Shown: positions 1,328 to 18,611, counted from the first letter of the stretch. The stretch is DNA of 53,232 nucleotides from Thermoleophilia bacterium (GCA_017882525.1 JADGPI010000015.1:1-53232); one strand, 5' to 3'. Made by a program: numbers and translations. Notes: generated by a model from the sequence alone, not told the origin.

Positions 1328-1752
1328 GTTCTCGGGGGATCAAGATCCTGATAGGCGCGGTGGTGATCGCGATCGCCTTGGGAGCCCTTCTGTGGGTGGG
1401 CATAAGCAAAAGTACCGTCTATTACTTCAGCGTCGCCGAGCTCAGAGCCAAAGGACCGGCGGTGGACGTGCGCGTCTCCGGCCAACTGGTGGCTGGGAGC
1501 GTGAAAGGTCTGGGCACGACGGACATCAGTTTTAGCATCCACGACCGCGACCACACGGGAGAGATCGTATCCGTTACGTATAGCGGGGCGGTGCCGGACA
1601 GCTTCCGAGACCAGCCCGGCACGGAAGTCGTAGCTCAGGGGGACTATCTCGCTGGGGGCACCTTCCAAGCCTCCACACTCATAGCCAAGTGCCCCAGCAA
1701 GTATCAAGCAGCCACGTCGACTTCCACTTCGCCCTCCTCGACGACTCGTTGA
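1324..1752 (+). CDS. ccmE: Cytochrome c maturation haem chaperone CcmE, cysteine (CxxxY) variant
   Basis: N-terminal membrane anchor (IKILIGAVVIAIALGALLWVGI), an OB-fold-like body (FSVAELR...VRVSGQLV...FSIHD) and a C-terminal LIAKCPSKY motif where the canonical protein has LAKHDENY. Confidence 0.85.
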   Translation: MSSRGIKILIGAVVIAIALGALLWVGISKSTVYYFSVAELRAKGPAVDVRVSGQLVAGSVKGLGTTDISFSIHDRDHTGEIVSVTYSGAVPDSFRDQPGTEVVAQGDYLAGGTFQASTLIAKCPSKYQAATSTSTSPSSTTR

Positions 1753-3824: not shown

Positions 3825-4554
3825 GATGCATCGCGCCGTCGCGGCGGTCGAGGTGAAGAACCTCTGGAAGGTCTACGGGCACGTCGAAGCCCTCAAGGGG
3901 GTCGACCTGACGGTTGCCGAAGGCAGTTTCCTGACGATCTTCGGTCCGAACGGAGCCGGCAAGACCACGCTCATGAAGGTCCTGGCCACGCTTGCTCGGC
4001 CTACCGATGGCTCCGCGCTGGTGGGGGGACACGACGTCACAAGAGAAGCCGGGGCGGTGCGGAAACGGGTGGGGGTCATCTCGCACAATACGTACCTCTA
4101 CCCTCAGCTCACGGCGATGGAGAACCTAGCCTTCTATGGGCGTATGTACGGTTTGAAGCGGGCACGGGAGCGCTCCACCCAGCTGCTCGAGCAGCTGGGT
4201 CTGGCGACCCGCATGCACGACCGGGTGGCGACTTTCTCTCGTGGGATGCAGCAGCGCCTGTCGGTGGCGCGAGCTCTCTTGCACGAGCCGGAGCTTCTGC
4301 TGCTCGACGAGCCGTATACCGGCCTGGACCAACACGCCAGCCGCATCCTCGCCGGGGTGTTGGAGGGTTTGCGCGATGGACAGCGCACGGTGGTGATGAC
4401 CACGCACAACCTTCAAGAAGGACTAGAGAGTTGCGACAGGGTCGCTATCCTCGTGCGCGGGAAGATGGTGTTTGAAGAGGCGGCGGCGGAAGTCGACCGC
4501 TCGGGCTTTCAAGCGACGTATTTCGCGTGCGTCGAGAGGGCATGGGGCCGGTGA
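3814..4554 (+). CDS. ccmA: Haem exporter ATP-binding protein CcmA
   Basis: Walker A GPNGAGKTT, signature FSRGMQQRL, Walker B LLLLDEP. ATG 3814 overlaps the ccmF stop (alternative ATG at 3826). The position in the ccm cluster supports the call. Confidence 0.85.
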   Translation: MLAEMHRAVAAVEVKNLWKVYGHVEALKGVDLTVAEGSFLTIFGPNGAGKTTLMKVLATLARPTDGSALVGGHDVTREAGAVRKRVGVISHNTYLYPQLTAMENLAFYGRMYGLKRARERSTQLLEQLGLATRMHDRVATFSRGMQQRLSVARALLHEPELLLLDEPYTGLDQHASRILAGVLEGLRDGQRTVVMTTHNLQEGLESCDRVAILVRGKMVFEEAAAEVDRSGFQATYFACVERAWGR

Positions 4555-5228
4555 ACGCTCTCGGACAGGCCTGGGCCATCACCAAGAAAGACCTCGTTGC
4601 GGAACTGCGGGGCGCCAGCACCATCGTGTCGATGGTGCTGCTCGGTCTTCTCGTGGTGCTGGTCTTCAATTTCGGCACCGATCCCGGGGCCAAGGACGTC
4701 ACGCTGGCCCGTTCCGGAGTCTTGTGGGCCGCGTTCCTGTTCGCCGGGGTGATCGCGGTGGGGCGTTCCTTCGCCACGGAGAAGGAGGCAGGGTGTCTGG
4801 ACGGCCTTTTGCTCTGTCCGGTCGACCGCGCGGTCATCTACCTTGGCAAGCTTGTCGGGAACCTGATCCTTCTTTTCGTGACGGGCCTCGTGATACTGGG
4901 TTTCTTCACCGTGCTCTACAACGTCGGGTTGGGTGCTGGATCGGCTGGGCTGGTGCTCGTGATGGCCCTGGCCAGCATAGGGTTCAGCGCCATCGGGACA
5001 TTGTTCGCCGCGGTCGGGGCGGGAGTGCGCGCTCGCGATGCCCTCTTAGCAGTGTTCATCTTTCCCTTGCTGGTACCTCTGATCATCGCGGCAGCCCACG
5101 TATCGACAGTGCTGCTGGCCGGGCAGGGATTGGGGGGCGCAGGTCTGTGGCCCTGGTTCCTTGTCGTATACGATGTGGTTTTCCTGGCCATCTCTTTCAT
5201 GACCTTCGATTTCGTGGTGGAGGAATAG
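4542..5228 (+). CDS. ccmB: Haem exporter membrane protein CcmB
   Basis: About 228 aa with six predicted helices. The N-terminus ITKKDLVAELRG is typical of CcmB. ATG 4542 overlaps the ccmA stop (alternative GTG at 4527). Confidence 0.85.
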   Translation: MGPVNALGQAWAITKKDLVAELRGASTIVSMVLLGLLVVLVFNFGTDPGAKDVTLARSGVLWAAFLFAGVIAVGRSFATEKEAGCLDGLLLCPVDRAVIYLGKLVGNLILLFVTGLVILGFFTVLYNVGLGAGSAGLVLVMALASIGFSAIGTLFAAVGAGVRARDALLAVFIFPLLVPLIIAAAHVSTVLLAGQGLGGAGLWPWFLVVYDVVFLAISFMTFDFVVEE

Positions 5229-5231
5229 CCC

Positions 5232-5945
5232 ATGGACAAAGGGCCGGCGCGACGCGATCTCATGGTCACCGTCCTTGGTGCCGTGACCTTTGTCTTCATG
5301 CTCGTCGCCCTTCTTGGTGCCTTGGTGTGGGCGCCCAAGGAGGCGACCATGGGCGACGTGCAGCGGATCTTCTACTTCCACATGCCCAGCGCGTGGATCG
5401 CCCTCGGACCTGGTTTCACTGTGGTGTTCGCACTTAGCATCGCCTATTTGGCCACCGGGCGGCTCAAGTACGACCGGGTGGCGGCGGCTTCTGCAGAGAT
5501 AGGGGTCGTGTTCACCACGATCACGCTTGTCACCGGCCCTCTGTGGGCGAAGCCCGCTTGGGGCGTCTATTGGACATGGGAGCCACGACTGACGACGACG
5601 CTGGTCTTGTGGTTCATCTACGTCGGCTACTTGCTGCTTAGGTCGGTGGCGGGCGATGGACACCGGCGGGCGCGTCTTGCCGCAGTCTACGGGATCGTGG
5701 GGTGGGTGGACGTACCCATCGTGTTCTTCTCAATCTGGTGGTGGAGGACCATCCATCCCCGGGTGCTCACCAGCAGTGGTTTCGCGCTGGATTCCCGCAT
5801 GACGGCAGTGCTCATGGTGTCCTTGGCCGCCTTCACTCTGCTGTATGTGTTCCTGCTCGTCCTGCGCGTCCGTATCGAAAGCATGAGCGCGACAGTTCAG
5901 ACCTTACTATTTCGCGCTCGCGACCGTCGAGGAGGCGGTGTATGA
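5232..5945 (+). CDS. ccmC: Haem exporter / haem-handling protein CcmC
   Basis: W-rich motif WAKPAWGVYWTWEPRLTTTL and FYFHMP with the conserved His. Starts 3 nt after the ccmB stop. Confidence 0.9.
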   Translation: MDKGPARRDLMVTVLGAVTFVFMLVALLGALVWAPKEATMGDVQRIFYFHMPSAWIALGPGFTVVFALSIAYLATGRLKYDRVAAASAEIGVVFTTITLVTGPLWAKPAWGVYWTWEPRLTTTLVLWFIYVGYLLLRSVAGDGHRRARLAAVYGIVGWVDVPIVFFSIWWWRTIHPRVLTSSGFALDSRMTAVLMVSLAAFTLLYVFLLVLRVRIESMSATVQTLLFRARDRRGGGV

Positions 5946-6103
5946 ACGCCACCGGCTATCTTGCCGCGGCCTACAGCATCATCTGGGTGATCATCGCGGC
6001 GTACGTTGTGTATCTGGGCAGGCGGCAAGCCGGGCTTCGCCGGCAGATCGAGGTCCTGCAGATCGAGATGTCAGAGCGTAACGAGCCGGGCGAGCAGGGC
6101 TAG
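5942..6103 (+). CDS. ccmD: Small single-pass membrane protein CcmD
   Basis: ATGA overlap with the ccmC stop. The 53-aa product has one helix (YLAAAYSIIWVIIAAYVVYLG) followed by basic residues, as in CcmD. Confidence 0.6.
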   Translation: MNATGYLAAAYSIIWVIIAAYVVYLGRRQAGLRRQIEVLQIEMSERNEPGEQG

Positions 6104-6186
6104 AGCCGGGAGCCCGACGGGGCTATTTTGGGCCACCGGGGGTTGTGTCCCATCGGGGACGGCCGAGGGACGAGGTCTGGGATCGG

Positions 6187-6957
6187 CTAGAGTTCCGCCC
6201 TGCGGATGGCGGCGTACGCTCCAAGGAGCAGGACCAAGCTGAGCCCCAGGTCGATCAGGGCGCTGGCCACCCCCGTAAACGACAGGCCGACGGGGGCCAT
6301 GTCGGCGCCTCCAATGAGGGAGGAGCCCATGCTGGCGGCGCCGTAAGGGCCCCAACTTCCGAGTGGTTTCCACAGCGCCCCAAGGAACGGCAAGACGAAC
6401 AGAGGGACCAGCGACACGCCTCCGGCGATGGGGCCCTGGCGGAAGAGAGCCGAGAAGAAGAAAGTCCACGAGAAGACCAGAAGCAGATAGCAAAGGTAAA
6501 GGAGCAGGGCGACTGCCATGGCCCCGATGTGGGGCTTTCCCAGCAGCAGGGTCGTGTAGAGGATCGCGACTCCTCCGCCAATGGCGAACGAGACGAGGAC
6601 ATAGAGCGCGTTGACGGCCCAGCGAAGCGATAGGTACCGGAGGCGCGATACAGGCTTGACGAAGAGGACCGAGAGAAGACCCTCTTTTCGTTCGGACGCG
6701 ACGACGCCCATGAAGATGACGACGATCACCAGAAGCCCCAGTTGGCGCGAGAACTGGAGGTATTGGTTCAGACCATCGGCCGGACCGAAGTTTGGCATGG
6801 AGATCTCCACTTGCTGGCCGGCCTGTTTGATGATGGTCGGCAGTAGCCGGATGAGCGCCGGTCCCATGATCCCGAACACCACGAAGACAGCCGGCAGGAA
6901 CACGATCCGGTGCGTGCGGACCAGATCCTTCAGCTCCTTCTGAAGCAAAGCCCTCAC
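6187..6957 (-). CDS. ABC-2 type transporter permease
   Basis: Six-helix membrane protein. The N-terminus MRALLQKELKDLVRTHR is typical of ABC-2 permeases. Its GTG start overlaps the stop of the upstream ATPase gene. Confidence 0.7.
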   Translation of the reverse strand: MRALLQKELKDLVRTHRIVFLPAVFVVFGIMGPALIRLLPTIIKQAGQQVEISMPNFGPADGLNQYLQFSRQLGLLVIVVIFMGVVASERKEGLLSVLFVKPVSRLRYLSLRWAVNALYVLVSFAIGGGVAILYTTLLLGKPHIGAMAVALLLYLCYLLLVFSWTFFFSALFRQGPIAGGVSLVPLFVLPFLGALWKPLGSWGPYGAASMGSSLIGGADMAPVGLSFTGVASALIDLGLSLVLLLGAYAAIRRAEL

Positions 6958-7955
6958 CGGTCCGTCACCAGTTGGATGAAGACGTCTTCCAGTGTCGGTG
7001 TCATCGTGACAAACTCGGTCAGCCGGGCTCCCAGGCCGGCGACCAGAGCCGGCACCATCCGTTGAGCCCGTTCGGGATCGTTCACGAGGATCCGCAGCCC
7101 CCCGCCCTCAGGTGCGATTTCCTTCACCCAGGACTCTCTCTTGAGAGCGGCGGCCAGCTCATTCCTTTCTCCGGCCACTTCCAGGTGGAATACCGGCTTC
7201 GCGTACCTCCCCAGCAGCTCGCCCAGCGGTGCCTCGACCACCAGCCGTCCGTCGCGGACGATGCCGACCCAGCCGCACACTCGCTGCACGTCGTCCAGAA
7301 TATGCGAGGACATCATGATCGTCGCTCGGCCACGCAGGGAGGCAATGAGGTCGAGCACTTCCCGACGGCCGATCGGGTCCAAGGCAGACGCGGGTTCGTC
7401 GAGCAGGAGAACTTCCGGATCGCCCATCAAAGCCTGGGCTATCCCGAGGCGCTGCCGCATCCCTCGGGAAAAGCCTCGGATGCGGTCCTTGGCGCGAGGG
7501 GAGAGGTCGACGGAATCGAGAAGGGCGGCCGCACGTCTTGCGGCCTCGGCCGGGCTCAGGTCGAAAAGCCTTCCTACGAACACAAGGAATTCGTGGGCGG
7601 TCATCCACGGGTAGAACGCTGGTTCCTCGGCCAGGAAGCCCACTCGTCTGCGGAGCTCGAGGCTGAACCGGCCGGGTCTCACCTGCTCTCCGGCCACGAG
7701 TGCCTCACCGGAAGTGGGAGAAAGCAATCCGGCAAGCATCTTGAGGGTTGTAGTCTTGCCTGAACCGTTCGGACCCAGGAAGCCATACACTTCGCCGGTA
7801 GGTACTCGCAGCGAGAGTCCATCCACCGCCCGCACGTGCTTGAAGACGCGAGTGAGGGCTCGCAACTCGATGGTCCACTCGGTGCCCTCCTGGTGGACCG
7901 CGCGGGCCTCTCCCACACTGGCGCCGGTCGCGCCAGTCTCCCCGGCTGCTACCAT
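6954..7955 (-). CDS. ABC transporter ATP-binding protein
   Basis: Walker A GPNGSGKTT, signature FSRGMRQRLGIAQAL, Walker B LLLLDEP, H-loop SSHIL, plus a C-terminal accessory domain. Confidence 0.9.
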   Translation of the reverse strand: MVAAGETGATGASVGEARAVHQEGTEWTIELRALTRVFKHVRAVDGLSLRVPTGEVYGFLGPNGSGKTTTLKMLAGLLSPTSGEALVAGEQVRPGRFSLELRRRVGFLAEEPAFYPWMTAHEFLVFVGRLFDLSPAEAARRAAALLDSVDLSPRAKDRIRGFSRGMRQRLGIAQALMGDPEVLLLDEPASALDPIGRREVLDLIASLRGRATIMMSSHILDDVQRVCGWVGIVRDGRLVVEAPLGELLGRYAKPVFHLEVAGERNELAAALKRESWVKEIAPEGGGLRILVNDPERAQRMVPALVAGLGARLTEFVTMTPTLEDVFIQLVTDR

Positions 7956-8200
7956 CCCCGCCCTCGGGGGTCCCCCGGGTTCTCTCGACCTGGCTCAGCG
8001 GCAGGCTCTGGGTTTCGGCCCCAGGCCAGGTAGAGGATCGATCCCACCAGCTGGAAGAAGACGATCACGACCGCCCAGACGAGCTTGCTTCCCCCGCGGA
8101 CTCGGTCGGTCCGCGCCAAATCGACCAAGGCCCAGATCCATATGCCCAATTCGATGGCGGCTATAGGGAGAACCACCGCGATGCTCACCAATGTGCTCAC
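7949..8200 (-). CDS. Small membrane protein with PLD-nuclease N-terminal (PLDc_N) type domain
   Basis: Two helices with the characteristic IWALVDL...KLVWAVVIVFFQLVGSILYL pattern. GTG start. The stop overlaps the ATPase start by 7 nt. Confidence 0.6.
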   Translation of the reverse strand: MSTLVSIAVVLPIAAIELGIWIWALVDLARTDRVRGGSKLVWAVVIVFFQLVGSILYLAWGRNPEPAAEPGRENPGDPRGRGW

Positions 8201-8847
8201 TAAACGGCCCTCGCTTCCTTCCGCCCTTCGATCCAGCCAACTATACTAGGCGTTCGGAGCAAGAGAAGGGAGCAAAGGTAGAATCGTCGATCACCTACTT
8301 CGATCACCACGGCAGAGCCAATACGCCACAGGTGCTGGAACTGGTTCGAGCGCGGGCCACTGCCCTTGGTATCACCGACGTGGTCGTCCCGTCGGTGGAG
8401 GGCACCAGCGCCCTGCTCGCGTGTGAGCGTTTGGCCGGCCTGCACGTGGTTGTTGTGACGCAATCTTCCGGCTTCGCCCGGCCCGGTCATCAGGAGATGC
8501 CGGAGGACGTGCTGGAGGAACTGAAGGCCCGAGGCGCCTCGGTGTTCAGGGGCACGCATTCGTTCGGGGGAGTGGGCCGTGCCGTACGGCGTAAGTTCGC
8601 CACGTATCAGGTGGAGGAGATCATCGCCCAGACCCTCAAGCGGTTCGGGGAAGGGACCAAGGTAGCCGTGGAAGCCAGTTTGGCCGCGGCGGACGCCGGT
8701 CTGATATCGCCTCCACGAGAAACCATATCGTGTGGGGGCACCGGTCGCGGCTTGGACACCGCACTCGTGTTACGCCCCTCCCACGCCCAGGATTTCTTCG
8801 ATCTCGAGATCCTGGAGATCATCTGCAAGCCGAGGAACCCAAAGTAG
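8191..8847 (+). CDS. Pyruvate kinase alpha/beta (C-terminal) domain-like protein of unknown role
   Basis: ITYFDHHGRANT...VVVPSVEGTSAL...VVVVTQSSGF...GTHSFGGVGRAV...FGEGTKVAVE...GGTGRGLDTALVLRP...DLEILEIICKPRN matches the stand-alone PK_C-like family. The homologous part begins about 30 codons after the only canonical start (ATG 8191), so the start is uncertain. Confidence 0.6.
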   Translation: MCSLNGPRFLPPFDPANYTRRSEQEKGAKVESSITYFDHHGRANTPQVLELVRARATALGITDVVVPSVEGTSALLACERLAGLHVVVVTQSSGFARPGHQEMPEDVLEELKARGASVFRGTHSFGGVGRAVRRKFATYQVEEIIAQTLKRFGEGTKVAVEASLAAADAGLISPPRETISCGGTGRGLDTALVLRPSHAQDFFDLEILEIICKPRNPK

Positions 8848-9324: not shown

Positions 9325-10809
9325 CTAGCGCCGCTCGTGCTGCTCCGGGATGTACTCTTCGAGAACCGGGAAATCGCGCAACTCCTTGTCGATGGCTGCG
9401 CGCATGAAAGAGTCCACCCACCAGAAGACATCTTGCGACCGGATGTTCTTGCGCAACCGGCGCATCCTGTACCTACGCTCTCCGGCCGACATCCGATAGG
9501 CGTTGAAGATGGCGTCCGCGGTCTGCTCCACGTCGTACGGATTGACCACCAGCGCCGCCCTGCCTAGTTGTGCCGACGCTCCCGCGAACTGGCTGAGGAT
9601 GAGCACCGATTCCTCGTCCAGGCTACACGCGCAGAACTCTTTGCATACGAGGTTCATCCCATCCTTGAGCGGGGTCACCAGGGCGATCTGGGCCGCTCGG
9701 TAGAACGCGAGCAGCTCGTGCGGGGCCAGGCTCCGGAACATGTAGTGCACGGGCACCCAGCCCATTTGGGTGTAGCGGCCGTTTATCTGGCCCACCAGCT
9801 GATCGATCTCCTGTTTTAGGGCGTCATAGCGAGGGATGCCTTCGCGGCTGGGTACTACCACCTGGACGAAGGTTATCCGGCCCCGCGCCTCGGGGAAGCG
9901 CTCCAAGAAGTTGCCGAACGCCCGCAACCGATGAGGGATCCCTTTCGTGTAGTCCAGGCGGTCGATACCCAATACCAACTGTCTATCTCCGAAATGAGCA
10001 AGGATCCGCCGGTATTCACTCTCGACTTCCGGAGAGGCCGCCCGGGTGGCAAAATCGCGGGCGTCGATACCTATGGGGAAAGTACCCACGTGCATCTCGC
10101 GCCCTTCCGTCTGGATCGAATGCAGGTGGCCGTCTGCCTTGACTCGCGCACCCCGCACCATGGTGCGGACACACTGGATGAAGTTCCGCCGGTCCCGGAG
10201 GGTCTGAAACCCAACCAGGTCGTAGGCCAGCAGCGAATCGAGCACGGCCTGGCGTTCTGGCAGATCGAGGAAGATGTCAGGCGGGGGAAAGGGGATATGG
10301 AGGAAAAAGGCCAAGTCTGGGCAGTTCTTGTCCTCGCGCATGTGATGTGCCACGTCGAGGAGCTGGTAGTCGTGTATCCATACGAAGTCGTCAGGGCGGG
10401 CTTCCGCGGCGATCGACTCGGCGAACCGGCGGTTCACCTTCACGTAGGCGGGCCAATACTCAGGGTTGAAGTTGCAGTGAGACGGCAGGTCGTGGAACAG
10501 CGGCCAGACGGTCTCGTTGGAATACCCATTGTAGTAACGATCGTATTCGTCCGGGCTGAGGATGACCGGCTTGAGCGAGTAGCCGGCATCGGTGGCCGCT
10601 TCGTGGAGTATCTGGTTGAGCTGGGGGACGTGCTCGGTGACGCCCGGCCAGCCGATCCACATTCCGCCTCGGTTGCGCAACACGGGGAGCAGGGCCGTCA
10701 CCAGCCCACCGGAACCGGCGGAGAGCTCCCAGCCTTCGTTCTTGCGCTTGAGGACGTACGGCAGCCGATTGGAAACGACGATCAGTCGCTTCATGCCGGC
10801 GCTAGCCAA
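9325..10809 (-). CDS. otsA: Alpha,alpha-trehalose-phosphate synthase (GT20)
   Basis: [41 protein letters not shown] and [13 protein letters not shown] are hallmark GT20/OtsA blocks. Confidence 0.9.
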
Positions 10810-12061
10810 GTTCTATGCGGTCCTCGTTCCCGTGGATGAGCGCTACCATCACGGTGAGGTACTCGCGTAAGTGCCGGGTGATAAGGAAATTCTGGCGAAC
10901 CATCTCTTTCGCGTTCTCCCCGATCTGCTTGATCCGCGGTCGGTTGAACAAGAGGTAGCGGATGCGAAGAGCCGCCCCTTCGGGCGTATCCACGAGAAAG
11001 CCCGTGCGGTGATTGACAAGCTGGAGCCGTATGCCCCCCGTATTGCCGCCGATCACCGGCTTGCTTTTCCACATCGCCTCCGTCACGGTCAGTCCGAAGC
11101 CTTCCCGTAGCGATTTCTGCAGCACGATGTCCGCTCCGGTCTGGAGCGCGTTGATGGTCCGGTCGGTGTAGTGGCCAGAGGCTAGCACATGGATGTCGGG
11201 GTCGCCGGCTGCCGCGTCTCGCACTTCGGAGAGGACGGTCTCGCCCTCAGGGTCGTCGACTGCGCCCCCGCCGGCAAGTACCAGCTGCAGGCTTGGCACG
11301 AAGCGCTTGGCCAGCTGGTAGGCCTCGATTACCCCCAGCGGGTCTTTGAAGCGGTCGAAGCGCGAGACCTGGAGGATCATCGGACGCTGTGGGTCAATAC
11401 CGAACTCCGTCTTCGTTTCCAGGACTCTGCGCGCCGGCAAGGGAAGGTTCTTCTCGCTCAAGGGATCGATGCTGGGGGGGATGAGATACACGGTGTGCGG
11501 CATGGGCTGGGCAAAAGCATCGAGGGAGAAGATGCTCGCGTCGTAAGGATTGATGAACTGGCGAAGGTACTTCCAGATCGGCCGACACGGGTGGCTGACG
11601 TCGATGTGGCACCGCCAGATCCACTTGGCGCCGCATGCCCCGCAGTTTTGCAGTAGAGGTGCGGGTTGCGGATCGTGGACGAAGACGATGTCTGCCGTTT
11701 CGAGTGCCGGGCGGAGCCGCTCCGAGTTGACGCGATTGACCTCCTCGTACACGCGGAGGAGAGAGTCGGGGATGTGCACGGTCTTCCCTTGAAGGCCATT
11801 GTGGAAGGCTTTTGTGCACGCAAAGAAGTCCTCGTTCCCCTCTATCACCTCCCAACTCGCGTCGATCCCCAACTCCTGCATCAAGGGGACCAGCTTCTCC
11901 AGGATCTCGGCCACGCCCCCGCCACGACGGGTGGAGTTGACGTGCACGACTTTCATGCCGTTGAGCAGCCCGGCCAGTTGGCGGAGCTGCTCAACCGCGT
12001 CCAACCCCGCGTGCCTCGCGTACTTATCGAGGAGGTCGGTGCTGGCGATATCCACGGCCAC
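10802..12061 (-). CDS. treT: Trehalose glycosyltransferring synthase TreT-like (GT4)
   Basis: VHVNSTRRGGGVAEIL, WRCHIDVS, PPSIDPLSEKN, QVSRFDRFKDP, DDPEG and LREGFGLTVTEAMWKSKPVIGG closely follow my memory of archaeal/Rubrobacter TreT sequences. Confidence 0.8.
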   Translation of the reverse strand: MAVDIASTDLLDKYARHAGLDAVEQLRQLAGLLNGMKVVHVNSTRRGGGVAEILEKLVPLMQELGIDASWEVIEGNEDFFACTKAFHNGLQGKTVHIPDSLLRVYEEVNRVNSERLRPALETADIVFVHDPQPAPLLQNCGACGAKWIWRCHIDVSHPCRPIWKYLRQFINPYDASIFSLDAFAQPMPHTVYLIPPSIDPLSEKNLPLPARRVLETKTEFGIDPQRPMILQVSRFDRFKDPLGVIEAYQLAKRFVPSLQLVLAGGGAVDDPEGETVLSEVRDAAAGDPDIHVLASGHYTDRTINALQTGADIVLQKSLREGFGLTVTEAMWKSKPVIGGNTGGIRLQLVNHRTGFLVDTPEGAALRIRYLLFNRPRIKQIGENAKEMVRQNFLITRHLREYLTVMVALIHGNEDRIELG

Positions 12062-12063
12062 GA

Positions 12064-12945
12064 TCAGGCCTCACTCTTGCCGTTCGGTGGCGCATCGGCA
12101 GGCGCTTCGCCTGCAACCGTAGCGGCACGGCGCTGCGCCGGCTCTACAGCGCCCGCGCGCTCGGGCGAGTCGACGGAAGCGGGCGCGGCCGTGGCCGGCA
12201 CCACGGTTGTCCGCGATGGCATGCCGAACGGGAGCGACGTCCTCCATGTGTTTCGGCGAGCGTCCGGTGACTGGCCGCCTGGAAATTCCTCGCTTGCTAC
12301 CGCCGGTGCAAAGTAGCTCTCGAAGAGCTGGCTGAGCCGCTCCCGCATGCTATAGAGCGAATCGAAGTAAGGGTCGGACTCCGCCAGAACGCTGCAAAGG
12401 TCCGCGTAGTTCGGCCCGAGCCCGGTGAGCCAGGCCCGAAAATCGTCGACTCCACCTTCTGTGCGCCGGCGGGCGTCGATGAAATGGTAGAAGATGCTCC
12501 CCACCGACATCTTCGGGAGGGCGGCCGCAAGTTCTTCCGGCTGCGCGAGCCGGCGGTGCGTGTCGAATACCACTATGGCGGACCGAACAAAATGGAATTG
12601 CTGATCCGCTCGAGCGAAAAGAACCACTTCTGTTTCGTCAAGCCTCTCATCGATGACCTCGATGATCTCCTGGCGCAGGCCTTCCAGATCAGAAAAGTCC
12701 ATCGGGTCTATAACGGCCAGCCGCTCGGCCATCCGATTGTCGTGCAGACTCGCCGAGGACCAGCTGGCGAAGTCGTTGTTGAACTCGCGGTCCGAGGACT
12801 GGGGGCGCAGCAGGGTGCCCCAGAAGTGGTGGTAGATCGATCCGGGATGGATGTCGCGAAGGATGTTCCGCATCTCGCGCAGCGTTTGCGCACGCCGCCC
12901 GGTGGCGATGTTGGCGAGCGCACAGTCCTTGATCGCGAAATCCAT
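12064..12945 (-). CDS. Conserved hypothetical protein, DUF5752-like, with Ala/Pro-rich C-terminal tail
   Basis: The pattern FAIKDC...SIYHHFW...REFNNDFASW...SIFYHFIDARRR resembles the DUF5752 family that accompanies glycosyltransferase genes. It lies 2 nt upstream of treT. The assignment is from memory, not a search. Confidence 0.55.
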   Translation of the reverse strand: MDFAIKDCALANIATGRRAQTLREMRNILRDIHPGSIYHHFWGTLLRPQSSDREFNNDFASWSSASLHDNRMAERLAVIDPMDFSDLEGLRQEIIEVIDERLDETEVVLFARADQQFHFVRSAIVVFDTHRRLAQPEELAAALPKMSVGSIFYHFIDARRRTEGGVDDFRAWLTGLGPNYADLCSVLAESDPYFDSLYSMRERLSQLFESYFAPAVASEEFPGGQSPDARRNTWRTSLPFGMPSRTTVVPATAAPASVDSPERAGAVEPAQRRAATVAGEAPADAPPNGKSEA

Positions 12946-12999
12946 GCTGATCTCTCCCGCGTCGTCCGGAAATATGCTCTTACCCGCTGTAGAGACCGC

Positions 13000-13836
13000 C
13001 TAACCGCCCGGAGAGCTTTTGCATGCGACAGGCTGGACGAACAGAGCCAGGAAATCCGCGACCTCCCGCGGACCGGGCAGCCAGTAGTTGGCTCGAGTGA
13101 CGGCGCGCGCCTCGCCCACCACGATGGTTGCACCCCATCCATCCACGGCAGCGAACGCGTCCTCGTCTGTGAGATCGTCACCAAGGCAGATCGGGAAAAC
13201 CTCGCCCGGTGCCAAGTCAAGCCTCTCAAGCAGCCACAAAAGCGCTTTCCCCTTGTCCCACTCGGTCGCCGGTCTGAACTCGTACACCAGCTTGCCGGGG
13301 CGGAGACGGATCTCGTCGTAGTGCCCGGCCACCTTCTTCACCGCGGCCTCCACAGTTCCCCGTTGGGAAGGACGTACGAGCCGGTAGTGGACGGCCACCG
13401 AGAAGCCCTTGGACTCGATGATGAGTCCTTCGATACGCGCCAGTTGCTGTTGGAGCTCCTGGGCGGCGGCGGAGAGCGCGGCGCGAAACTCGCACCCGAG
13501 TCTCAAGTGGATCGGTGAGCCCCACGGTCCTTCCACCTCATGGCCGTGATTGGCGGCATAGTAGACGCTGTCGAGGCCCACGAGTCCGCGGAGGTCATCG
13601 AGACCTCGTCCGGATAGGACGCATACGAGGTGACGCTCCGCGAGCGATGCCAGCAGGGCCCGGGCGTCCTCTGGCATCACGGCGAGTTCCGGCCTCATCG
13701 TCAACCCCACGAGAGTGCCGTCGTAGTCCACAAAGAACGTGAGATCGCGGCCCGATCCCTGCTCAACGATGTCTTCAAAGTGCTCGAGTGCCGAAGGAAG
13801 TCCGGGCCTATCCATTTGTCTGCAGTTCCGATTCAC
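13000..13836 (-). CDS. otsB: Trehalose-phosphate phosphatase (HAD-IIB)
   Basis: HAD motifs FFVDYDGTL, LSGRG and GDDLTDEDAF. Size and context match OtsB. The start is GTG 13836 or ATG 13815. Confidence 0.85.
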   Translation of the reverse strand: MNRNCRQMDRPGLPSALEHFEDIVEQGSGRDLTFFVDYDGTLVGLTMRPELAVMPEDARALLASLAERHLVCVLSGRGLDDLRGLVGLDSVYYAANHGHEVEGPWGSPIHLRLGCEFRAALSAAAQELQQQLARIEGLIIESKGFSVAVHYRLVRPSQRGTVEAAVKKVAGHYDEIRLRPGKLVYEFRPATEWDKGKALLWLLERLDLAPGEVFPICLGDDLTDEDAFAAVDGWGATIVVGEARAVTRANYWLPGPREVADFLALFVQPVACKSSPGG

Positions 13837-14206
13837 CTGCGGCGCTCCGCGTGAGCCTTATCGCGCGCTCCGCGGACCGCCGTGCGGATACGCCGCTCAG
13901 GATGCTCGCAAGATCGCAGTACACCGTCCTTCTCCTCCCTGACCGCCGTGCCACGCACTGAGTTCTCGTCGAACTGTACCCGTCGCCACTGGTAATAATG
14001 TCATTGAGGAGACACGGCCCTTCATGGGACCGAAAGGAAAGCACTGGCCTCTCGCAGGCGAATATTCTCCAAAATTATCGGGTATTATGGGCGCGCATCG
14101 ATAGGACAGCTCTCAAGGCGACGTGCAGAGTGCTTCATCAATGTCCGTTCGTCCGCAAGTGCATCCGAACGCATGCGGTCCTGTCCCTTAGTCAGTGGAG
14201 GATTTG

Positions 14207-14614
14207 ATGAGCACGGCAAGACTGTACGTGGGTAATCTGTCCTACGGCACCACCAAAGAGACGCTGGAGAAGGCTTTCGCGGCGCACGGCGAAGTGGTGT
14301 CCGTCAACCTCATCACCGACCGTCAGACCGGGCGTCCCAAGGGTTTCGCATTTGTTGAGATGTCCACCCCCGAAGAGGGAGAGGCGGCGAAGGCCGCACT
14401 CAACGGCACTGACTTGGATGGCCGCGCCATCAATGTGGATAGCGCTCGGGAGCAAGAGCAGCGCAAGCCTGGCGGCTTCGGCGGGAGTCGTGGTGGCGGC
14501 TATGGTGGCGGCGGCGGCTATGGTGGTGGCGGCGGCAGCCGTAGCGGCGGCGGCAGTTACGGCGGCGGTGGCCGCGGCGGCGGTGGCGGCCGGGAGGGTG
14601 GCTCCCGCTGGTAG
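14207..14614 (+). CDS. RRM-type RNA-binding protein with glycine-rich (RGG/YGG) tail
   Basis: GGAGG lies 6 nt before ATG 14207. RNP2 is LYVGNL and RNP1 is KGFAFVEM. The C-terminal ~55 aa are Gly/Arg/Tyr/Ser repeats. Confidence 0.9.
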   Translation: MSTARLYVGNLSYGTTKETLEKAFAAHGEVVSVNLITDRQTGRPKGFAFVEMSTPEEGEAAKAALNGTDLDGRAINVDSAREQEQRKPGGFGGSRGGGYGGGGGYGGGGGSRSGGGSYGGGGRGGGGGREGGSRW

Positions 14615-14669
14615 TTTGCGGTGACGAGGGTCGACCGCTTTGAGCGGGGGAGATACCTGATGATCGTAC

Positions 14670-14700
14670 AAGGCGCCGGCATGTCCGGCGCCTTTTGTTT
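14670..14700 (+). terminator. Intrinsic terminator of the RRM gene
   Basis: AAGGCGCCGG (14670-14679) pairs with CCGGCGCCTT (14685-14694), with loop CATGT and a following U-tract TTTTGTTT. Confidence 0.8.
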
Positions 14701-14789
14701 GGGGCCACTCGACGCCGGGTAGCCCGGAAGTATCGGGTCTGTGGTAAAGGCCGCGCTTAGGCGCACCCAAAAGACGGGAGGGATCGCTG

Positions 14790-15011
14790 GTGGCTGAGAT
14801 CAAACTGGACGTGCGTGGGGAGACCTGCCCCGTGCCGCTCGTGGAGGTGCGGAAAGCTCTCAGGCAGGCGACTCCGGGAGACATCGTCGAAGTGGTGGGC
14901 ACGCACCCCTCGTCCAAGAAAGAGATCCCCCTGGCGATCAAGGCATTGAAGCTCGAGTTGCTCAGCGTCGAGGAGGAGGGTGGCACGTGGAAGATCAGGA
15001 TACAGCGATGA
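14790..15011 (+). CDS. TusA/SirA-like sulfur carrier protein
   Basis: 73 aa with a GTG start after GGGAGGG. The motif LDVRGETCPVPLVEVRKAL carries the CPxP active-site cysteine. Confidence 0.85.
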   Translation: MAEIKLDVRGETCPVPLVEVRKALRQATPGDIVEVVGTHPSSKKEIPLAIKALKLELLSVEEEGGTWKIRIQR

Positions 15012-15442
15012 CCGGATCGATCGACGCCGAGAAGATCACCCTTGTCGTGCACAGCGGTGATTTCGACAAGATCTACAGCGCATTCATCATCGGCAACGGG
15101 GCCCTCGCCATGGGCATGGAAGCATCGATGTACTTCACTTTCTGGGGCCTCCTGCGGCTCAAGAAAGGGCAGTTGGACCGTGGTCAGCTTTCCAAGATGC
15201 ACATGCTTGGCTTGGGCAAATGGATGGTCAAGAAACGCATGAAGAAGAGCCGGGTGGTGTCGCTTGAACGCTTGGCCCAGGACTTCAAGGCTCTCGGTGG
15301 CAAGATCTTCGCGTGTGACATGACCATGGATATCATGGGGGTCGGACCAGACGACCTCCGTCAGGATCTCATTACGGAATATTGCTCGGTAGGCACCTAT
15401 ATCGAGGAAGCTCGCCACTCCACTGTGACATTGTTCATTTAG
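15008..15442 (+). CDS. DsrE/DsrF/DsrH-like (DrsE_2-type) sulfur relay protein
   Basis: ATGA overlap with the tusA-like stop. KITLVVHSGDFDKIYSAFIIGNGALAMGMEASMYFTFWGL and KIFACDMTMDIMG match the PF13686-type family with its conserved Cys. Confidence 0.8.
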   Translation: MTGSIDAEKITLVVHSGDFDKIYSAFIIGNGALAMGMEASMYFTFWGLLRLKKGQLDRGQLSKMHMLGLGKWMVKKRMKKSRVVSLERLAQDFKALGGKIFACDMTMDIMGVGPDDLRQDLITEYCSVGTYIEEARHSTVTLFI

Positions 15443-15450
15443 GGGGTCCC

Positions 15451-16620
15451 ATGTTCGGCGAGACCGTTTATCTCGACAACGCAGCCGCGACCCGGTTGGA
15501 CGAGCGGGTTCTCGAGGCCATGAAGCCATATCTCTTCGATACTTATGCTGTGGCCACGTCGGAGTTTGGCTACTCCATGGGGATCGAGGCACGTGAAGCA
15601 TTGGACAGGGCGCGTGCTTCGCTGGCCGCCAGGCTGGGAGGAGGGGCAGAGGAGTTTATCTTCACATCCGGCAGCACTGAGTCCAGCAACATGGCTCTTA
15701 AAGGCGTCGCCTTGGCCCTGGGGGAGAAGAAGGGCAGGCACCTGATCACGTCGCGCATCGAGGACTTCCCGGTGCTCAACACGGCGGCCACGCTTGGCAA
15801 ACAGGGTTTCAAGGTCACCGTGCTGGACGTGGACGCGGACGGGTTGGTGGATCCGAGCGCCGTGGAGAAGGCCATATCCTCGGATACGGTAGTGGTGTCG
15901 ATCCAGCATGCCAATCAGGAGATCGGGACGGTGCAGGACATCGCAAGCATCGCCGAGATTTGTCGGGCCAAGGGGACCCTGTTCCACACAGATGCCACGC
16001 ACAGCTTTCCCAGGCTGCCTCTTGACGTGAGTAAGATCCCGGCTGACCTCGTGACAGTGGCGGCGCATGCCATCCACGGTCCCAAAGGGATGGGCGGCCT
16101 TTACCTCCGCTCCGGGACTCCGCTCGGCAAATGGATGGACGGAGGATTCCAGGAGTTCAATCGGCGGGCCGGCGTGGAAGACATCGCCGGAGCGGTAGGA
16201 TTCGCCACTGCAGCCGAGCTGATCACCGACGAAGAGACCGCGCGGCTCCGCGCCCTTCGCGACCGGCTCCTCGATCGCGTCCTGGGCGAGATCCCGTACA
16301 CGACGCTGAACGGCCATCGGACCCGCCGGCTGCCGCAAAATGCCAACGTCACTTTTCACTACGTGGAGGGTGAGTCCATCACCTTGCAGTTGGACATGCG
16401 CGGGTTCGCGGTGAGTACCGGATCGGCGTGCTTCAGTAAGTCTCTCGAGGCGAGCCACGTGATCCTGGGAATCGGAGGAGACCACGAGCGGGCACACGGC
16501 TCCGTACGTTTCTCCCTCGGGCGCTACAACACCCAGGAAGACGTCGATGGAGTGGTGGACGCGATTGCCGAAGTGGTGGGTGAGCTGCGAGCCATCAGCC
16601 CGCTTACCCCGGATCACTAA
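15451..16620 (+). CDS. Class V aminotransferase-fold IscS/NifS homologue lacking the PLP-binding lysine
   Basis: YLDNAA, GSTESSN, HANQEIGTV, HTDATH, HGPKGMGGLYLR and the STGSACFS cysteine loop align along the whole length with IscS/NifS. The SxHK lysine position reads AAHA (Ala207). Confidence 0.85.
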   Translation: MFGETVYLDNAAATRLDERVLEAMKPYLFDTYAVATSEFGYSMGIEAREALDRARASLAARLGGGAEEFIFTSGSTESSNMALKGVALALGEKKGRHLITSRIEDFPVLNTAATLGKQGFKVTVLDVDADGLVDPSAVEKAISSDTVVVSIQHANQEIGTVQDIASIAEICRAKGTLFHTDATHSFPRLPLDVSKIPADLVTVAAHAIHGPKGMGGLYLRSGTPLGKWMDGGFQEFNRRAGVEDIAGAVGFATAAELITDEETARLRALRDRLLDRVLGEIPYTTLNGHRTRRLPQNANVTFHYVEGESITLQLDMRGFAVSTGSACFSKSLEASHVILGIGGDHERAHGSVRFSLGRYNTQEDVDGVVDAIAEVVGELRAISPLTPDH

Positions 16621-16634
16621 GGAGGCCGAGGAAT

Positions 16635-17270
16635 ATGGCGTTTCCGTATAACGAGAAGGTGTTGGAGCACTTTCGGCATCCGCAGAACGTGGGCAAGATC
16701 GAAGATGCGGACGGCAAAGCCACCGAGGGGAGCCCGGCCTGCGGCGACATGGTGGCCGTCTACATCAAGGTCGATCCTGAGACGAAGGTGCTGAACGACG
16801 TGAAGTTCGAGTCCTACGGGTGCGCCTCCAACATCGCTACCGGATCGATCATCACCCAACTGGCGAAGGGCAAGACGCTGTCCGATGCCAAGAAGATCAC
16901 CTGGAAGCAAGCGTCCGACGAGCTGGGCGGTTTGCCGGCGATCAAGGCCCACTGCTCGGTGCTGGCCGTGGAAGGCTTGAGGGCCGCGATCCGTGACTAC
17001 GAAGAGAGACACGGACTGGTCACCGAGCGGGAACCCACGACAGAAGCCGTGATCAAACGCCGCCTCCGCCACGTGATGAATCCCCTCCGTGGCTTGGACG
17101 TGGTCCGCACGGATCTCATCAAGGAGATCGAGGTCAAAGACGGCGTAGTGCGGATCGTGGCCGATCTGGCTGCGGATCACCAGTTCGCTCCTGTCATCAA
17201 GGCCGACATCGCCGAGAAGATCGAGTCGCTCTGGGACGTCAAACAGGTGGTCATCGAGTTCGTGGGGTAG
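16635..17270 (+). CDS. iscU: IscU/NifU-N Fe-S scaffold fused to a C-terminal DUF59 (MIP18/SufT-like) domain
   Basis: The N-terminal ~125 aa carry the three scaffold Cys (SPACGD, YGCASNIA, KAHCSVLA). The C-terminal ~80 aa (VMNPLRGLDVVRTDLIKEIEV...VVRIVADL...) look like DUF59. Confidence 0.85.
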   Translation: MAFPYNEKVLEHFRHPQNVGKIEDADGKATEGSPACGDMVAVYIKVDPETKVLNDVKFESYGCASNIATGSIITQLAKGKTLSDAKKITWKQASDELGGLPAIKAHCSVLAVEGLRAAIRDYEERHGLVTEREPTTEAVIKRRLRHVMNPLRGLDVVRTDLIKEIEVKDGVVRIVADLAADHQFAPVIKADIAEKIESLWDVKQVVIEFVG

Positions 17271-17336
17271 ATACGGCCAAGGATTCCCGGACGCGCCCAC
17301 CCGGAGTTCGCGCAGACGTGGCGAGGCGCTAAACGA

Positions 17337-18611
17337 TCAGGGAACCACTTGGCCGGCGGTTGAAGCATCCGCGAACGCCACGCCTGTCAGCCGTGCCACC
17401 AGGGCCGCATCGGCGGGCGAGATGGCGTGCAGAGCGGCGATGAAAGGCGTCGATCCGCCGGCCTCAAGGTCAAAGAGGTGCGCGGTCTGAAATCCCAGCA
17501 AACCCCCCGCCGAGTCGTACAAAGCCACGCCGACGTCGATCAGGCTGACATCGCGGCCGGAGTCGTTCGTAACTTCGCCCGCGGCCGCGTAACCCACGTG
17601 CGCATCCAGGCGTCCGCCAAGTTCCGTCACCGGCAGGCGAAGATCGGGAGAGCCCACGGGTAGCCCATGTACCGTAAGCCGGACGGTGGTCGTGGCGACA
17701 CCGCCTGGCGCGACAGTGTTTTCTAATCCGACGTATGCCGCTTCCCCGGGGGCTAGCACTCGCGGTACGAACTCCAGTACGCCCCTATCCCACAGGACAG
17801 AGCCCTGCGCATTCAGCCCAGAAGCAGTAGCGTAAAGCTCTACCACAGCGTTACCTCTGTTCTCGACCCGGGCTGCGTAATGCTGGGTGGTCACTCCATT
17901 GGCCTGGAGGGGCTGCCAACTCGATAGATGCTCGTCGGTGATCGAGAGTAACTGCAACGAGTCAGACGCGTACCTGAGGGAGATAAGGTTGTAGAGGAGT
18001 GCCGCGACTTCGCCTCGGGTTATGGGATCGGCCGGATGGTCCTTGGTGGCGGACCATTCGAGGCCGTCGAGCAGCCCTGCATATTGTGCCCGGTCTGCCC
18101 ACGGCGCATGGACTGTGTCGAACGCGCCGAAGACAGACGTCACGCCGGGGGGAGGCTGGTCCGTGAGCGCGACCGCGGACCGGGAGACCATGGTTATCGC
18201 TTGGGCTATGGTTATGTTCCGCAAAGGTGCGAACGTCGTGGCATCGACGCCTTGGGTGATCCCGTTATCTGCTGCCGCGGCCACGTAGTGATACGGGTAC
18301 AGACTGTCGGGGTCGTTGGTCACGTCGGTGAAGGCGGAAATGCTTGTGTCGCTCACCGGCAGGGCCAATGTCAGCACGATCATCTTGGCGAATTGCTGGC
18401 GGCTTATGAACTGGTTCGGCCCGAAGCTGCCGTCCTGAAACCCCTCGACGATGTGGGACGCGGCGAGCGCCTCGACCTTGGACTGATAGGGGTAGTCGTC
18501 ACCGACATCGGGAAACGGTCCGGCCAGCGCGGGAGCTGCCCAAGCCGTGAGCAGCAGCGTTATGGCCGCAAGAACAAGCCCGGTCGTCTTGAATATCCGT
18601 CTTGCTTCCAC
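17337..18611 (-). CDS. Secreted S-layer-homology (SLH) domain protein
   Basis: Signal peptide ending APALA. SLH repeats (FPDVGDDYPYQSKVEALAASHIVEGF...; FTDVTN...YHYVAAAADNGITQGV...) are followed by an unassigned beta-rich C-terminal domain. Confidence 0.8.
   Translation of the reverse strand: MEARRIFKTTGLVLAAITLLLTAWAAPALAGPFPDVGDDYPYQSKVEALAASHIVEGFQDGSFGPNQFISRQQFAKMIVLTLALPVSDTSISAFTDVTNDPDSLYPYHYVAAAADNGITQGVDATTFAPLRNITIAQAITMVSRSAVALTDQPPPGVTSVFGAFDTVHAPWADRAQYAGLLDGLEWSATKDHPADPITRGEVAALLYNLISLRYASDSLQLLSITDEHLSSWQPLQANGVTTQHYAARVENRGNAVVELYATASGLNAQGSVLWDRGVLEFVPRVLAPGEAAYVGLENTVAPGGVATTTVRLTVHGLPVGSPDLRLPVTELGGRLDAHVGYAAAGEVTNDSGRDVSLIDVGVALYDSAGGLLGFQTAHLFDLEAGGSTPFIAALHAISPADAALVARLTGVAFADASTAGQVVP

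Follow-up and report, generated by a model that had tools for sequence, protein, structure and literature searches.

The 53,232-nucleotide stretch of DNA from a Thermoleophilia bacterium analysed here (GCA_017882525.1 JADGPI010000015.1:1-53232; hereafter the window) carries a gene, iscS*, whose 389-residue product, IscS*, is a homologue of the type I cysteine desulfurases IscS and NifS without the lysine that holds pyridoxal 5'-phosphate (PLP). The replacement of catalytic residues is fixed across a family of bacterial and archaeal proteins, and iscS* stands in an operon with genes for a TusA-type carrier, a DsrE2B-like sulfurtransferase and an IscU scaffold fused to a DUF59 domain (IscU*). 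We favour, with a rough probability of 0.55, the reading that IscS* is a non-catalytic IscS paralogue that docks IscU and TusA and uses Cys327 to pass on or ligate sulfur, within a cysteine-independent module that assembles iron-sulfur (Fe-S) clusters. As far as we could find, neither the bacterial members nor the conserved four-gene cassette as a unit has been described before, and the same holds for the way in which the pocket has been remodelled and fixed.

In the proposed mechanism, TusA, the DsrE2B-like protein, IscS* and the IscU-DUF59 fusion would together build Fe-S clusters without cysteine desulfuration. IscS* would act as a docking platform, predicted to be dimeric, in which the fold, the dimer, the IscU and TusA surfaces and the mobile Cys327 loop are retained. 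Sulfane sulfur, originating from polysulfide, S0, thiosulfate-type species or a separate canonical desulfurase, would be carried on Cys110 of the DsrE2B-like protein and Cys13 of TusA. TusA, docked on helix alpha2 of IscS*, would hand this sulfur to Cys327, which is the reverse of the IscS-to-TusA transfer of E. coli. Cys327 may then swing to IscU at the C-terminal face for sulfur delivery and/or as a fourth cluster ligand, as in the (IscS-IscU)2 complex of Archaeoglobus fulgidus, and the DUF59 domain could help to hand on the cluster.

The iscS* reading frame starts at the ATG at 15451, 8 nt past the preceding stop codon and behind a G-rich ribosome-binding stretch, and Pfam Aminotran_5 (PF00266) covers residues 6-366 of the product (E = 1e-67). 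The original prediction, aligned by eye, had set Asp105, His184 and Ala207 against His104, Gln183 and Lys206 of E. coli IscS, and Cys327 within the catalytic loop. The four codons were read where it had placed them, and the columns were upheld by HMMER alignment against structures and, identically, by MAFFT alignments that included E. coli IscS. In the HMMER alignments, 'vaahaihgpkg' pairs with 'saHKmyGPKG' of the canonical desulfurase 9wep, Ala207 lies opposite Asp199 of A. fulgidus IscS ('ssNDiyGPKG'), and 'riedfpv' and 'tdathsf' pair with 'eiehhsi' and 'tdavqsl'. Structure prediction, proposed earlier as a check, gave an AlphaFold2 model (100 homologues as input) with a mean pLDDT of 95.6, in which only the Cys loop is disordered (residues 327-329, pLDDT <50), as expected for the flexible loop of type I enzymes. 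In Foldseek comparisons the model matched human NFS1, E. coli IscS and A. fulgidus IscS with TM-scores of 0.91-0.95 (0.92-0.93 for E. coli IscS) and root-mean-square deviations of 1.2-1.5 Å. Judged by this model, IscS* is a type I IscS/NifS homologue of full length with a confidently predicted fold. It falls below all NCBIfam desulfurase equivalog cutoffs checked (NifS, IscS and DndA), scoring 427 against 530.75 for TIGR03402 (NifS), 350 against 643 for TIGR02006 (IscS) and 366 against 548 for NF010611. Public records name such genes 'cysteine desulfurase (NifS)'.

A residue census placed 193 non-identical members of the family beside 114 canonical relatives. The family set included 80 species-level genomes, the best 80 of 528 candidate loci recovered when one genome of each GTDB species was scanned, each examined with 6-kb flanks. 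At the Lys206 column the family has Thr in 179, Ala in 8, Val in 5, Ser in 1 and Lys in none, against Lys in 114/114 canonical relatives; the Ala of the AHA motif that the original prediction had proposed to survey is thus mostly Thr in the family, while the neighbouring His206 (98%) and the Asp of its EDF motif are kept. This Asp at the His104 column, Gln at the Asn155 column and His at the Gln183 column occur in every one of the 193 members, where all 114 canonical relatives have His, Asn and Gln, respectively. Cys327 and Arg353 are also present in 193/193. Together with the Asn35 and Thr243' columns, the columns of Lys206, His104, Asn155 and Gln183 are non-canonical throughout the family, and five of the six columns are invariant in the canonical relatives, the Asn35 column being 96% Asn. 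Asn35 gives way to a family-fixed Val34, followed by a Glu38-Phe39 insertion; the Thr243' column holds Val242 in the window protein and V/L/I/P in the family; and Met151 and Lys105 are switched to Gln152 and Phe106, again family-wide. The three lost PLP contacts listed in the original prediction are therefore all real, and the list was incomplete, since the Asn155, Asn35, Thr243', Met151 and Lys105 columns have changed as well. Across columns 76/104/155/180/183/203/205/206/243/328/354 (E. coli IscS numbering), the pattern T-D-Q-D-H-[S/A]-H-[T/A/S]-[L/V/I/M/P]-C-R was observed in 81/81 sequences (the window and the 80 loci), the window protein reading T-D-Q-D-H-A-H-A-V-C-R and canonical enzymes T-H-N-D-Q-S-H-K-T-C-R.

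Single mutations at His104, Gln183 and Lys206 of E. coli IscS abolish or nearly abolish activity (PMC9978102). Because the equivalents of all three are lost, the known chemistry of IscS predicts neither an internal aldimine nor C-S cleavage for IscS*, and these mutant data support the earlier expectation that the protein neither binds PLP covalently nor desulfurates cysteine. That expectation was too broad in one respect: lysine loss alone does not mean that no B6 cofactor is held, because A. fulgidus IscS binds pyridoxamine 5'-phosphate (PMP) non-covalently without the lysine (PMC8918507). In IscS*, B6 binding appears much less likely, since it has no counterpart of the stacking His, of Gln183, of Asn155 or of Thr243' either.

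The best 120 database matches to IscS* share 74-100% identity with it, and the Lys206 column is without Lys in every one of them; Ala occupies it in all 8 closest relatives, which come from separate assemblies of JGI and ENA. The window protein, which belongs to an uncultured Actinomycetota/Thermoleophilia-like lineage, is 86-90% identical to proteins from metagenome-assembled genomes (MAGs), and the Actinomycetota loci (Thermoleophilia and Gaiellales MAGs) lie at 78-90%. The other bacteria among the 80 loci belong to Dehalococcoidia, Anaerolineae, Syntrophales and other 'Deltaproteobacteria', with one Clostridia MAG, and the archaea (69-72%) to Methanothrix, Methanocrinis, Methanolobus (orthologue 69% identical), Methanobacteriaceae, Methanomassiliicoccaceae and Methanofastidiosum. 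Where representatives are taken at 50% identity, one full-length protein (P0121, 65% identity) and three truncated ones stand for the entire family, and a large score gap follows P0121 (558 vs 455 bits for the next match). An inter-domain identity of about 70% over all four cassette proteins implies, as judged from sequence, that the module is under strong selection and has spread laterally as a unit.

The order tusA-dsrE2B-like-iscS*-iscU* was recovered, when the four window proteins served as tblastn queries, in about 75 of the 80 loci; identity is 55-93% for each protein, and the hosts span four bacterial phyla and several archaeal orders. In these loci tusA lies directly 5' of the dsrE-like gene in 74/80. 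In the window the genes are packed with an ATGA overlap followed by gaps of 8 nt and 14 nt with Shine-Dalgarno-like sequences, the last being GGAGG ahead of iscU*. The overlap assumes that the dsrE2B-like gene starts at the ATG at 15008, which is probable: the open reading frame (ORF) is open from a GTG at 14987, and orthologue alignments start at residues 10-15 of this longer version. A terminator-like hairpin, conserved in related Actinomycetota loci, closes the gene upstream of the cassette, and a convergent SLH-domain gene lies 3' of iscU*. No HscBA, Fdx or A-type carrier genes were found in the operon or the flanking 10 kb, and no SufBCD, SufS, canonical IscS, rhodanese or YeeE, nor any further gene of Fe-S or sulfur metabolism, among about 30 large window ORFs scanned.

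The partner proteins keep their functional residues. TusA carries its CPxP motif as Cys13-Pro14-Val15-Pro16, with Cys13 conserved in 99% of 75 orthologues, and reaches neither the TusA nor the YedF NCBIfam equivalog cutoff, the best match being the YedF selenium-metabolism model (47 vs 79 bits). The DsrE2B-like protein finds its best PDB match in S. solfataricus DsrE2B (2QS7, E = 2e-17) and scores 59.5 bits against the NCBIfam DsrE2 cutoff of 210; Cys110 (numbered from 14987), its candidate active site, is present in 100% of 77 sequences. IscU*, a U-type scaffold with a C-terminal Cys-less DUF59 domain, is closest in the PDB to A. fulgidus IscU (4EB5_C). It keeps the ACGD and LPxxKxHC motifs and all residues required for de novo cluster assembly (Cys36, Asp38, Cys63, Lys104, His106 and Cys107), the three cysteines being present in 100% of 73 sequences. 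The carrier and ligand cysteines of all four proteins are thus 99-100% conserved, which supports a common module.

The docking surfaces point in the same direction. In E. coli, the IscS-IscU interface comprises helix alpha8 (309-316), Glu347 and the C-terminal helix, and the IscS-TusA interface comprises contacts of Trp45, Arg55 and Arg237 and salt bridges of Glu49/Asp52 to TusA Arg27/Arg31 (Shi et al., PMC2854127). The corresponding IscU-contact elements are invariant in the family (Glu306-Gly307-Glu308-Ser309 and Leu312 of helix alpha8, Glu346, and Pro384-Leu385), and the core of the TusA site is nearly so (Ile45 97%, Glu49 98%, Asp/Glu52 93%, Arg55 100%). Glu49 occurs in 21% of canonical relatives, most of them not TusA-linked, and Arg21/Arg25 of the window TusA align, by eye, with Arg27/Arg31 of E. 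coli TusA. This supports, and does not prove, docking of both partners on IscS*. With the retained Cys loop and the adjacent iscU*, the earlier suggestion that the protein could act as an IscU partner or persulfide acceptor is its best reading.

Table 1. Coordinates of the cassette, of key codons of iscS* and of canonical gene pairs near related cassettes
Feature	Coordinates	Strand	Description
Intrinsic-terminator-like hairpin	14670-14694	+	10-bp stem, 8 GC pairs, T-run; 5' cassette boundary
tusA	14790-15011	+	73-aa TusA/SirA-family carrier, GTG start; PF01206, E = 1e-22
dsrE2B-like sulfurtransferase gene	15008-15442	+	PF13686 (DsrE_2), E = 6e-33
iscS*	15451-16620	+	389-aa homologue of type I cysteine desulfurases; PLP lysine absent
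Asp105 codon GAC	15763-15765	+	Column of PLP-stacking His104, E. coli IscS
Gln156 codon CAG	15916-15918	+	Column of Asn155
His184 codon CAC	16000-16002	+	Column of Gln183, which hydrogen-bonds PLP O3'
Ala207 codon GCC	16069-16071	+	Column of Schiff-base Lys206
Cys327 codon TGC	16429-16431	+	Mobile loop STGSACFS; persulfide-carrying/cluster-ligating Cys by homology
Arg353 codon CGT	16507-16509	+	Equivalent of substrate-carboxylate-binding Arg354; retained
iscU*	16635-17270	+	211 aa; NifU_N PF01592, E = 1e-41, and FeS_assembly_P/DUF59 PF01883, E = 3e-11
Canonical IscS-IscU pair, locus L009	8757-10321	-	
Canonical IscS-IscU pair, locus L017	9161-10802	-	
Canonical IscS-IscU pair, locus L022	8758-10291	-	
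Canonical IscS-IscU pair, locus L026	8911-10466	-	

Several loci depart from the common arrangement. A canonical IscS-IscU pair lies 2-4 kb downstream of the cassette, on the minus strand, in four Dehalococcoidia loci (Table 1); the canonical IscS concerned is 46% identical to IscS* and has the full canonical pocket pattern. Because such a pair co-exists nearby, IscS* is best taken as a specialised paralogue and not as a decayed housekeeping gene. In at least seven loci, namely six from Dehalococcoidia (L006, 3226-4085; L011, L019, L046, L053 and L059) and L028, from a MAG labelled Chloroflexia, a gene of the Asp/Glu/hydantoin-racemase family is inserted between iscS* and iscU*. Its product of about 220 residues (PF01177, E = 1e-13) has two Cys motifs, QCSSVG and CAQGSM, and may be an extra module component in its lineage. 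The Anaerolineae locus L013 (7155-7815) has the order iscS*-ferritin-iscU*-tusA-dsrE, and the ferritin (PF00210, E = 1e-43) inside the cassette gives a link to iron handling. In three other Anaerolineae loci (L008, L016 and L030), iscS* occurs without tusA, dsrE or iscU within 6 kb. Translations of the L008 flanks (3600-8400), read by eye, contain a stand-alone Cys-containing DUF59 protein and ferredoxin-like and rubrerythrin/ferritin-like ORFs, as well as a Crp/Fnr-type regulator and a Cys-rich 162-residue ORF near iscS*. The iron and Fe-S context of L013 and L008 supports a role in Fe-S assembly.

Lysine loss is not confined to this family. Among the 150 nearest representatives at 50% identity, 17 full-length proteins are Lys-less, and because their residue patterns vary, the lysine must have been lost several times. 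Two more distant Lys-less lineages (L081, 940-2988; L082, 4001-5783), with the pocket patterns T-A-Q-D-W-T-G-L-V and T-R-Q-D-H-S-H-L-N, also precede an IscU-DUF59 fusion. In L081 a TusA gene follows, while L082 is archaeal (TFIIB nearby) and has a PAPS_reduct/PUA/TGT_C2 protein as neighbour. The pairing of these sister lineages with IscU-DUF59, and of one of them also with TusA, is a further point in favour of the proposed module.

Several points weigh against the proposed relay. To our knowledge, sulfur transfer from TusA to IscS has been demonstrated in no system, and TusA and IscU are reported to compete on E. coli IscS (Shi et al. 2010). The sole DsrE2B tested, that of M. cuprina, was inert to six sulfur compounds, and TusA passed nothing on to it. 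M. acetivorans IscS1, which belongs to the family, was insoluble when expressed alone in E. coli (PMC7585200), and the iscSU genes of A. fulgidus and Methanothrix, even with sulfide, failed to complement an E. coli mutant (bioRxiv 2024.03.20.586028). A further objection comes from the pocket itself. In a passive platform the old PLP/substrate pocket should drift. Instead, Asp105, Gln156, Asp181, His184, His206 and Arg353 stay invariant, and this suggests that the protein does something beyond scaffold and relay.

The former PLP/substrate pocket may accordingly have been rebuilt as a new ligand site, with IscS* chemically active as an iron donor, a sensor or a small-molecule persulfide acceptor; we regard this as a tentative alternative with a minor chance of being correct. 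Candidate occupants are a metal, such as Fe(II), coordinated by Asp105/Asp181/His184/His206, or a non-covalent B6-like or carboxylate-bearing sulfur compound secured by Arg353. The replacements of PLP-ring and substrate ligands are invariant in bacteria and archaea at an overall identity of only about 70%: Asp105, Gln152, Gln156, His184 and Val34 stand at 99-100%, and Asp181 (Asp180, pyridine N1), Thr76 (phosphate) and Arg353 at 100%, with His206 (equivalent of the phosphate-binding His205) at 98%. Meanwhile positions 75 (S/D/G/N), 204 (S/A), 207 (T/A/V/S) and 242 (V/L/I/P), the former PLP phosphate and Schiff-base sites, drift. The PMP held by A. fulgidus IscS and the retention of Arg353, lost in A. 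fulgidus-type lineages, also speak for a ligand. The same invariant polar residues may nevertheless form a hydrogen-bond or salt-bridge network that fills an empty pocket, and the bulky Phe106, Phe233 and Phe236, all new to the pocket, are consistent with cavity filling. Two readings of the pocket are thus conceivable: a cavity-filling side-chain network of Asp105, His184, Gln156, Phe106, Phe233 and Phe236, or a new ligand or metal site.

A bolder version joins this idea to the sulfur relay. The PLP pocket would have been re-engineered, and not merely lost, into a site for another ligand, for example Fe(II) or a small-molecule sulfane carrier, and the cassette would be a self-contained, laterally mobile, cysteine-independent Fe-S machine of anaerobes to which IscS* brings both relayed sulfur on Cys327 and a second ingredient. 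Invariant Asp105, Gln152, Gln156, Asp181, His184, His206 and Arg353, with the Glu38-Phe39 insertion, hint at such a site, and we offer the proposal as an unlikely speculation.

A purely structural role, as proposed for A. fulgidus IscS, is similarly doubtful. IscS* would here stabilise IscU and lend it Cys327 as a ligand, the sulfur would be free sulfide, and TusA and the DsrE2B-like protein would be co-transcribed but serve elsewhere, for example in buffering or regulation. This role is modelled on the A. fulgidus (IscS-IscU)2 structure, together with the proposal of sulfide as its sulfur source. The hosts of the cassette are overwhelmingly anaerobes of sulfidic habitats, and both the inertness of M. 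cuprina DsrE2B in vitro and the three Anaerolineae loci with a solitary iscS* fit it. It accounts poorly for a four-gene order kept, with translational coupling, in most of the 80 genomes over two domains, for the enrichment of Glu49 at the TusA site relative to canonical relatives, and for the near-complete conservation of the TusA and DsrE carrier cysteines.

It is improbable that the cassette relays sulfur or selenium to an end other than general Fe-S assembly, be it tRNA thiolation, the synthesis of molybdopterin or a thio-cofactor, the delivery of selenium or the maturation of one special metallocluster, with IscU-DUF59 as a carrier. The known roles of TusA are tRNA 2-thiolation and molybdenum cofactor (Moco) synthesis, and the best score of the window TusA, although short of the cutoff, is with the YedF model of selenium metabolism. 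P0199, the archaeal sister lineage, adjoins the PAPS_reduct/PUA/TGT_C2 protein, and a canonical IscS-IscU pair is available nearby in some genomes. However, IscU* has every residue for de novo cluster assembly, variant loci show an iron-storage and Fe-S context, and tRNA-modification, Moco and SelD genes were not consistently linked to the cassette. Finally, that an artefact or a decaying pseudogene stands behind the unusual residues, for which nothing beyond the residues themselves speaks, has a negligible chance of being true: sequencing or assembly error was rejected by Ala207 being common to independent assemblies (8/8 closest relatives) and by Lys in 0/193 family members, and pseudogene decay by the intact ORF, the high-confidence fold and very strong purifying selection over 193 homologues (about 70% identity between bacteria and archaea).

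If the relay through Cys327 holds, the cassette bears on the sulfur supply for Fe-S cluster assembly in strict anaerobes. For the SMS system the source is sulfide, and reviews describe MIS with an active desulfurase (PMC13066941, PMC12192291). The cassette offers a concrete and testable candidate for the missing link: an IscS predicted to be unable to make persulfide, tied to two sulfur carriers and an IscU-DUF59 fusion. Dozens of the genomes examined, and probably several hundred in all, conserve the four-gene unit; they belong to Dehalococcoidia, Syntrophales, Thermoleophilia-like Actinomycetota and methanogens. Labels of 'cysteine desulfurase (NifS)' overstate cysteine-dependent sulfur mobilisation when the metabolism of these uncultured lineages is reconstructed.

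Around the cassette, a motif GGGTAGCC was observed at 14717-14724, about 70 nt 5' of the tusA GTG, as a candidate promoter or operator element. Its core GGGTA is invariant in eight Actinomycetota loci with otherwise diverging flanks, and GGGTAG is found in 7/8. A sigma-70 scan upstream of the cassette gave nothing above shuffle expectation, and an Rfam scan of 13800-17600 returned only a sub-threshold sroD match coinciding with the terminator hairpin. Directly upstream lies the gene closed by that hairpin, encoding an RRM RNA-binding protein with a Gly/Arg-rich tail (14195-14614, +; PF00076, E = 2e-22); this neighbour is shared by five related Actinomycetota loci (L001, L002, L004, L007 and L010) and is not found in other phyla. 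Two antisense ORFs, at 15439-16617 (-, 392 residues; opposite iscS*) and 14192-15601 (-, 469 residues; opposite tusA/dsrE), are most likely artefacts of a 63% GC sequence in which stop codons are scarce, given that strong family matches belong to the genes on the sense strand.

Further out, the window contains trehalose synthesis, cytochrome c maturation and ABC transporter genes. The trehalose cluster (9325-13836, -) comprises an OtsA-type GT20 synthase (9325-10809), a TreT-type trehalose synthase (10802-12061), a DUF5752 gene (12064-12945; PF19027, E = 6e-79) and a trehalose phosphatase (13000-13836), the DUF5752 gene being embedded between two trehalose pathways. The cytochrome c maturation genes (1689-5945, +) encode CcmF-like (1689-3824), CcmA-like ABC ATPase and CcmC-like (5232-5945) proteins. 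Because Ccm genes are present, the host is expected to make c-type cytochromes; most cassette carriers, in contrast, are strict anaerobes. A gene for a B12-binding radical SAM protein (45754-47151, +; PF02310 and PF04055), an Fe-S client enzyme, was also identified.

The closest described system is that of M. acetivorans, whose IscS1 (MA0808) is, by sequence, the orthologue of IscS*. IscS1 was noted in 2020 as lacking PLP-binding residues including the essential lysine, with the remark that it 'may function like A. fulgidus IscS', and its neighbours were given as MA0810 (SirA-like), MA0809 (DsrE superfamily) and MA0807 (IscU1, 24 kDa), of unknown function (Deere et al. 2020, PMC7585200). In the published alignment IscS1 resembles IscS* in the segments IEDFPVL, QHSNQEIGT, ATHSF, SAHTIHGP, STGSACFS and GIGGDHERAHGS (PMC7585200). 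The signature of the IscS1 group, that is, Asp/Gln/His at 104/155/183, the loop STGSACFS and the motif GIGGDHERAHGS, was found in all 81 sequences, those of the window and of the 80 loci. The order TusA-DsrE-IscS-IscU of MA0810-MA0807 is also that of the window, and the 24 kDa of IscU1 equals the size of the fused IscU*, which is the only ground for expecting a DUF59 domain in MA0807. The window protein differs from IscS1 in being bacterial and in having Ala, not Thr, at the lysine column. Literature searches on the cassette, IscS1, Lys-less desulfurases and MIS/SMS returned only this 2020 account (PMC7585200). The original prediction, which knew of no bacterial case coupled to TusA/DsrE, stands for bacterial members, for which we found no paper; the archaeal orthologue and its neighbours, however, were already on record.

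A. fulgidus IscS (AF0564; 4HVK, 4EB5, 4R5F) was rightly named in the original prediction as a precedent, and it is the best PDB sequence match to IscS* (4EB5/4HVK, E = 1e-100, about 44% identity). Like IscS*, it has the type I fold, lacks the Schiff-base lysine, keeps the loop Cys and is encoded with an IscU. It is inactive as a desulfurase, and its loop Cys ligates a [2Fe-2S] cluster on IscU in the IscS-IscU complex (PMC7585200, PMC8918507). It nevertheless belongs to a different lineage, which lost the lysine independently. Its pattern, T-H-N-D-A-S-N-D-S-C-L, shows Asp in the Lys column, Ala in that of Gln183 and loss of Arg354, while His104, Asn155 and a Thr243-like Ser are kept; the Arg354 column is Leu, Gln or Val in A. 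fulgidus-type lineages and Arg in IscS*. Membership of IscS* in that lineage was rejected on this difference in pattern and on similarity clustering, in which the nearest neighbours of the A. fulgidus protein are other T-H-N-D-A-S lineages. A. fulgidus IscU, at 153 residues, has no DUF59 domain, unlike IscU*. We know of no linkage of A. fulgidus IscS to TusA or DsrE.

E. coli IscS (3LVL, 3LVJ) shares with IscS* the fold, the alpha8 contacts to IscU, the C-terminal SPL and the TusA-site core Glu49/Asp52/Arg55, and E. coli IscS, IscU and TusA form the same three-protein cast as in the cassette. The E. coli protein, however, is a PLP enzyme that gives persulfide to both TusA and IscU, unlike what is predicted for IscS*. 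As IscS* would be unable to make persulfide, any flow through TusA must run towards IscS*/IscU or bypass IscS*. The cassette is also without HscBA, Fdx, IscA and IscR.

The MIS system (MisS-MisU; Garcia et al. 2022) likewise combines an IscS-like protein with a U-type scaffold, without chaperones or carriers, and is typical of anaerobic archaea and bacteria. Its S component is described as a functional cysteine desulfurase in the two reviews cited above, whereas the catalytic residues are absent from IscS*; these reviews make no mention of a Lys-less subclass, of TusA/DsrE2B partners or of a DUF59 fusion. The dsrE2-tusA pairs of sulfur oxidisers, such as DsrE3A-DsrE2B-TusA of M. cuprina, resemble the cassette in their adjacent TusA and soluble DsrE2B with conserved cysteines, and the cassette DsrE shares both fold and Cys with the soluble DsrE2B type of SSO1126 and Mcup_0682. 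Those pairs feed dissimilatory oxidation (rDsr, sHdr), whereas the cassette loci, which lack dsr and shdr genes, join the two carriers in one operon with iscS* and iscU in anaerobes.

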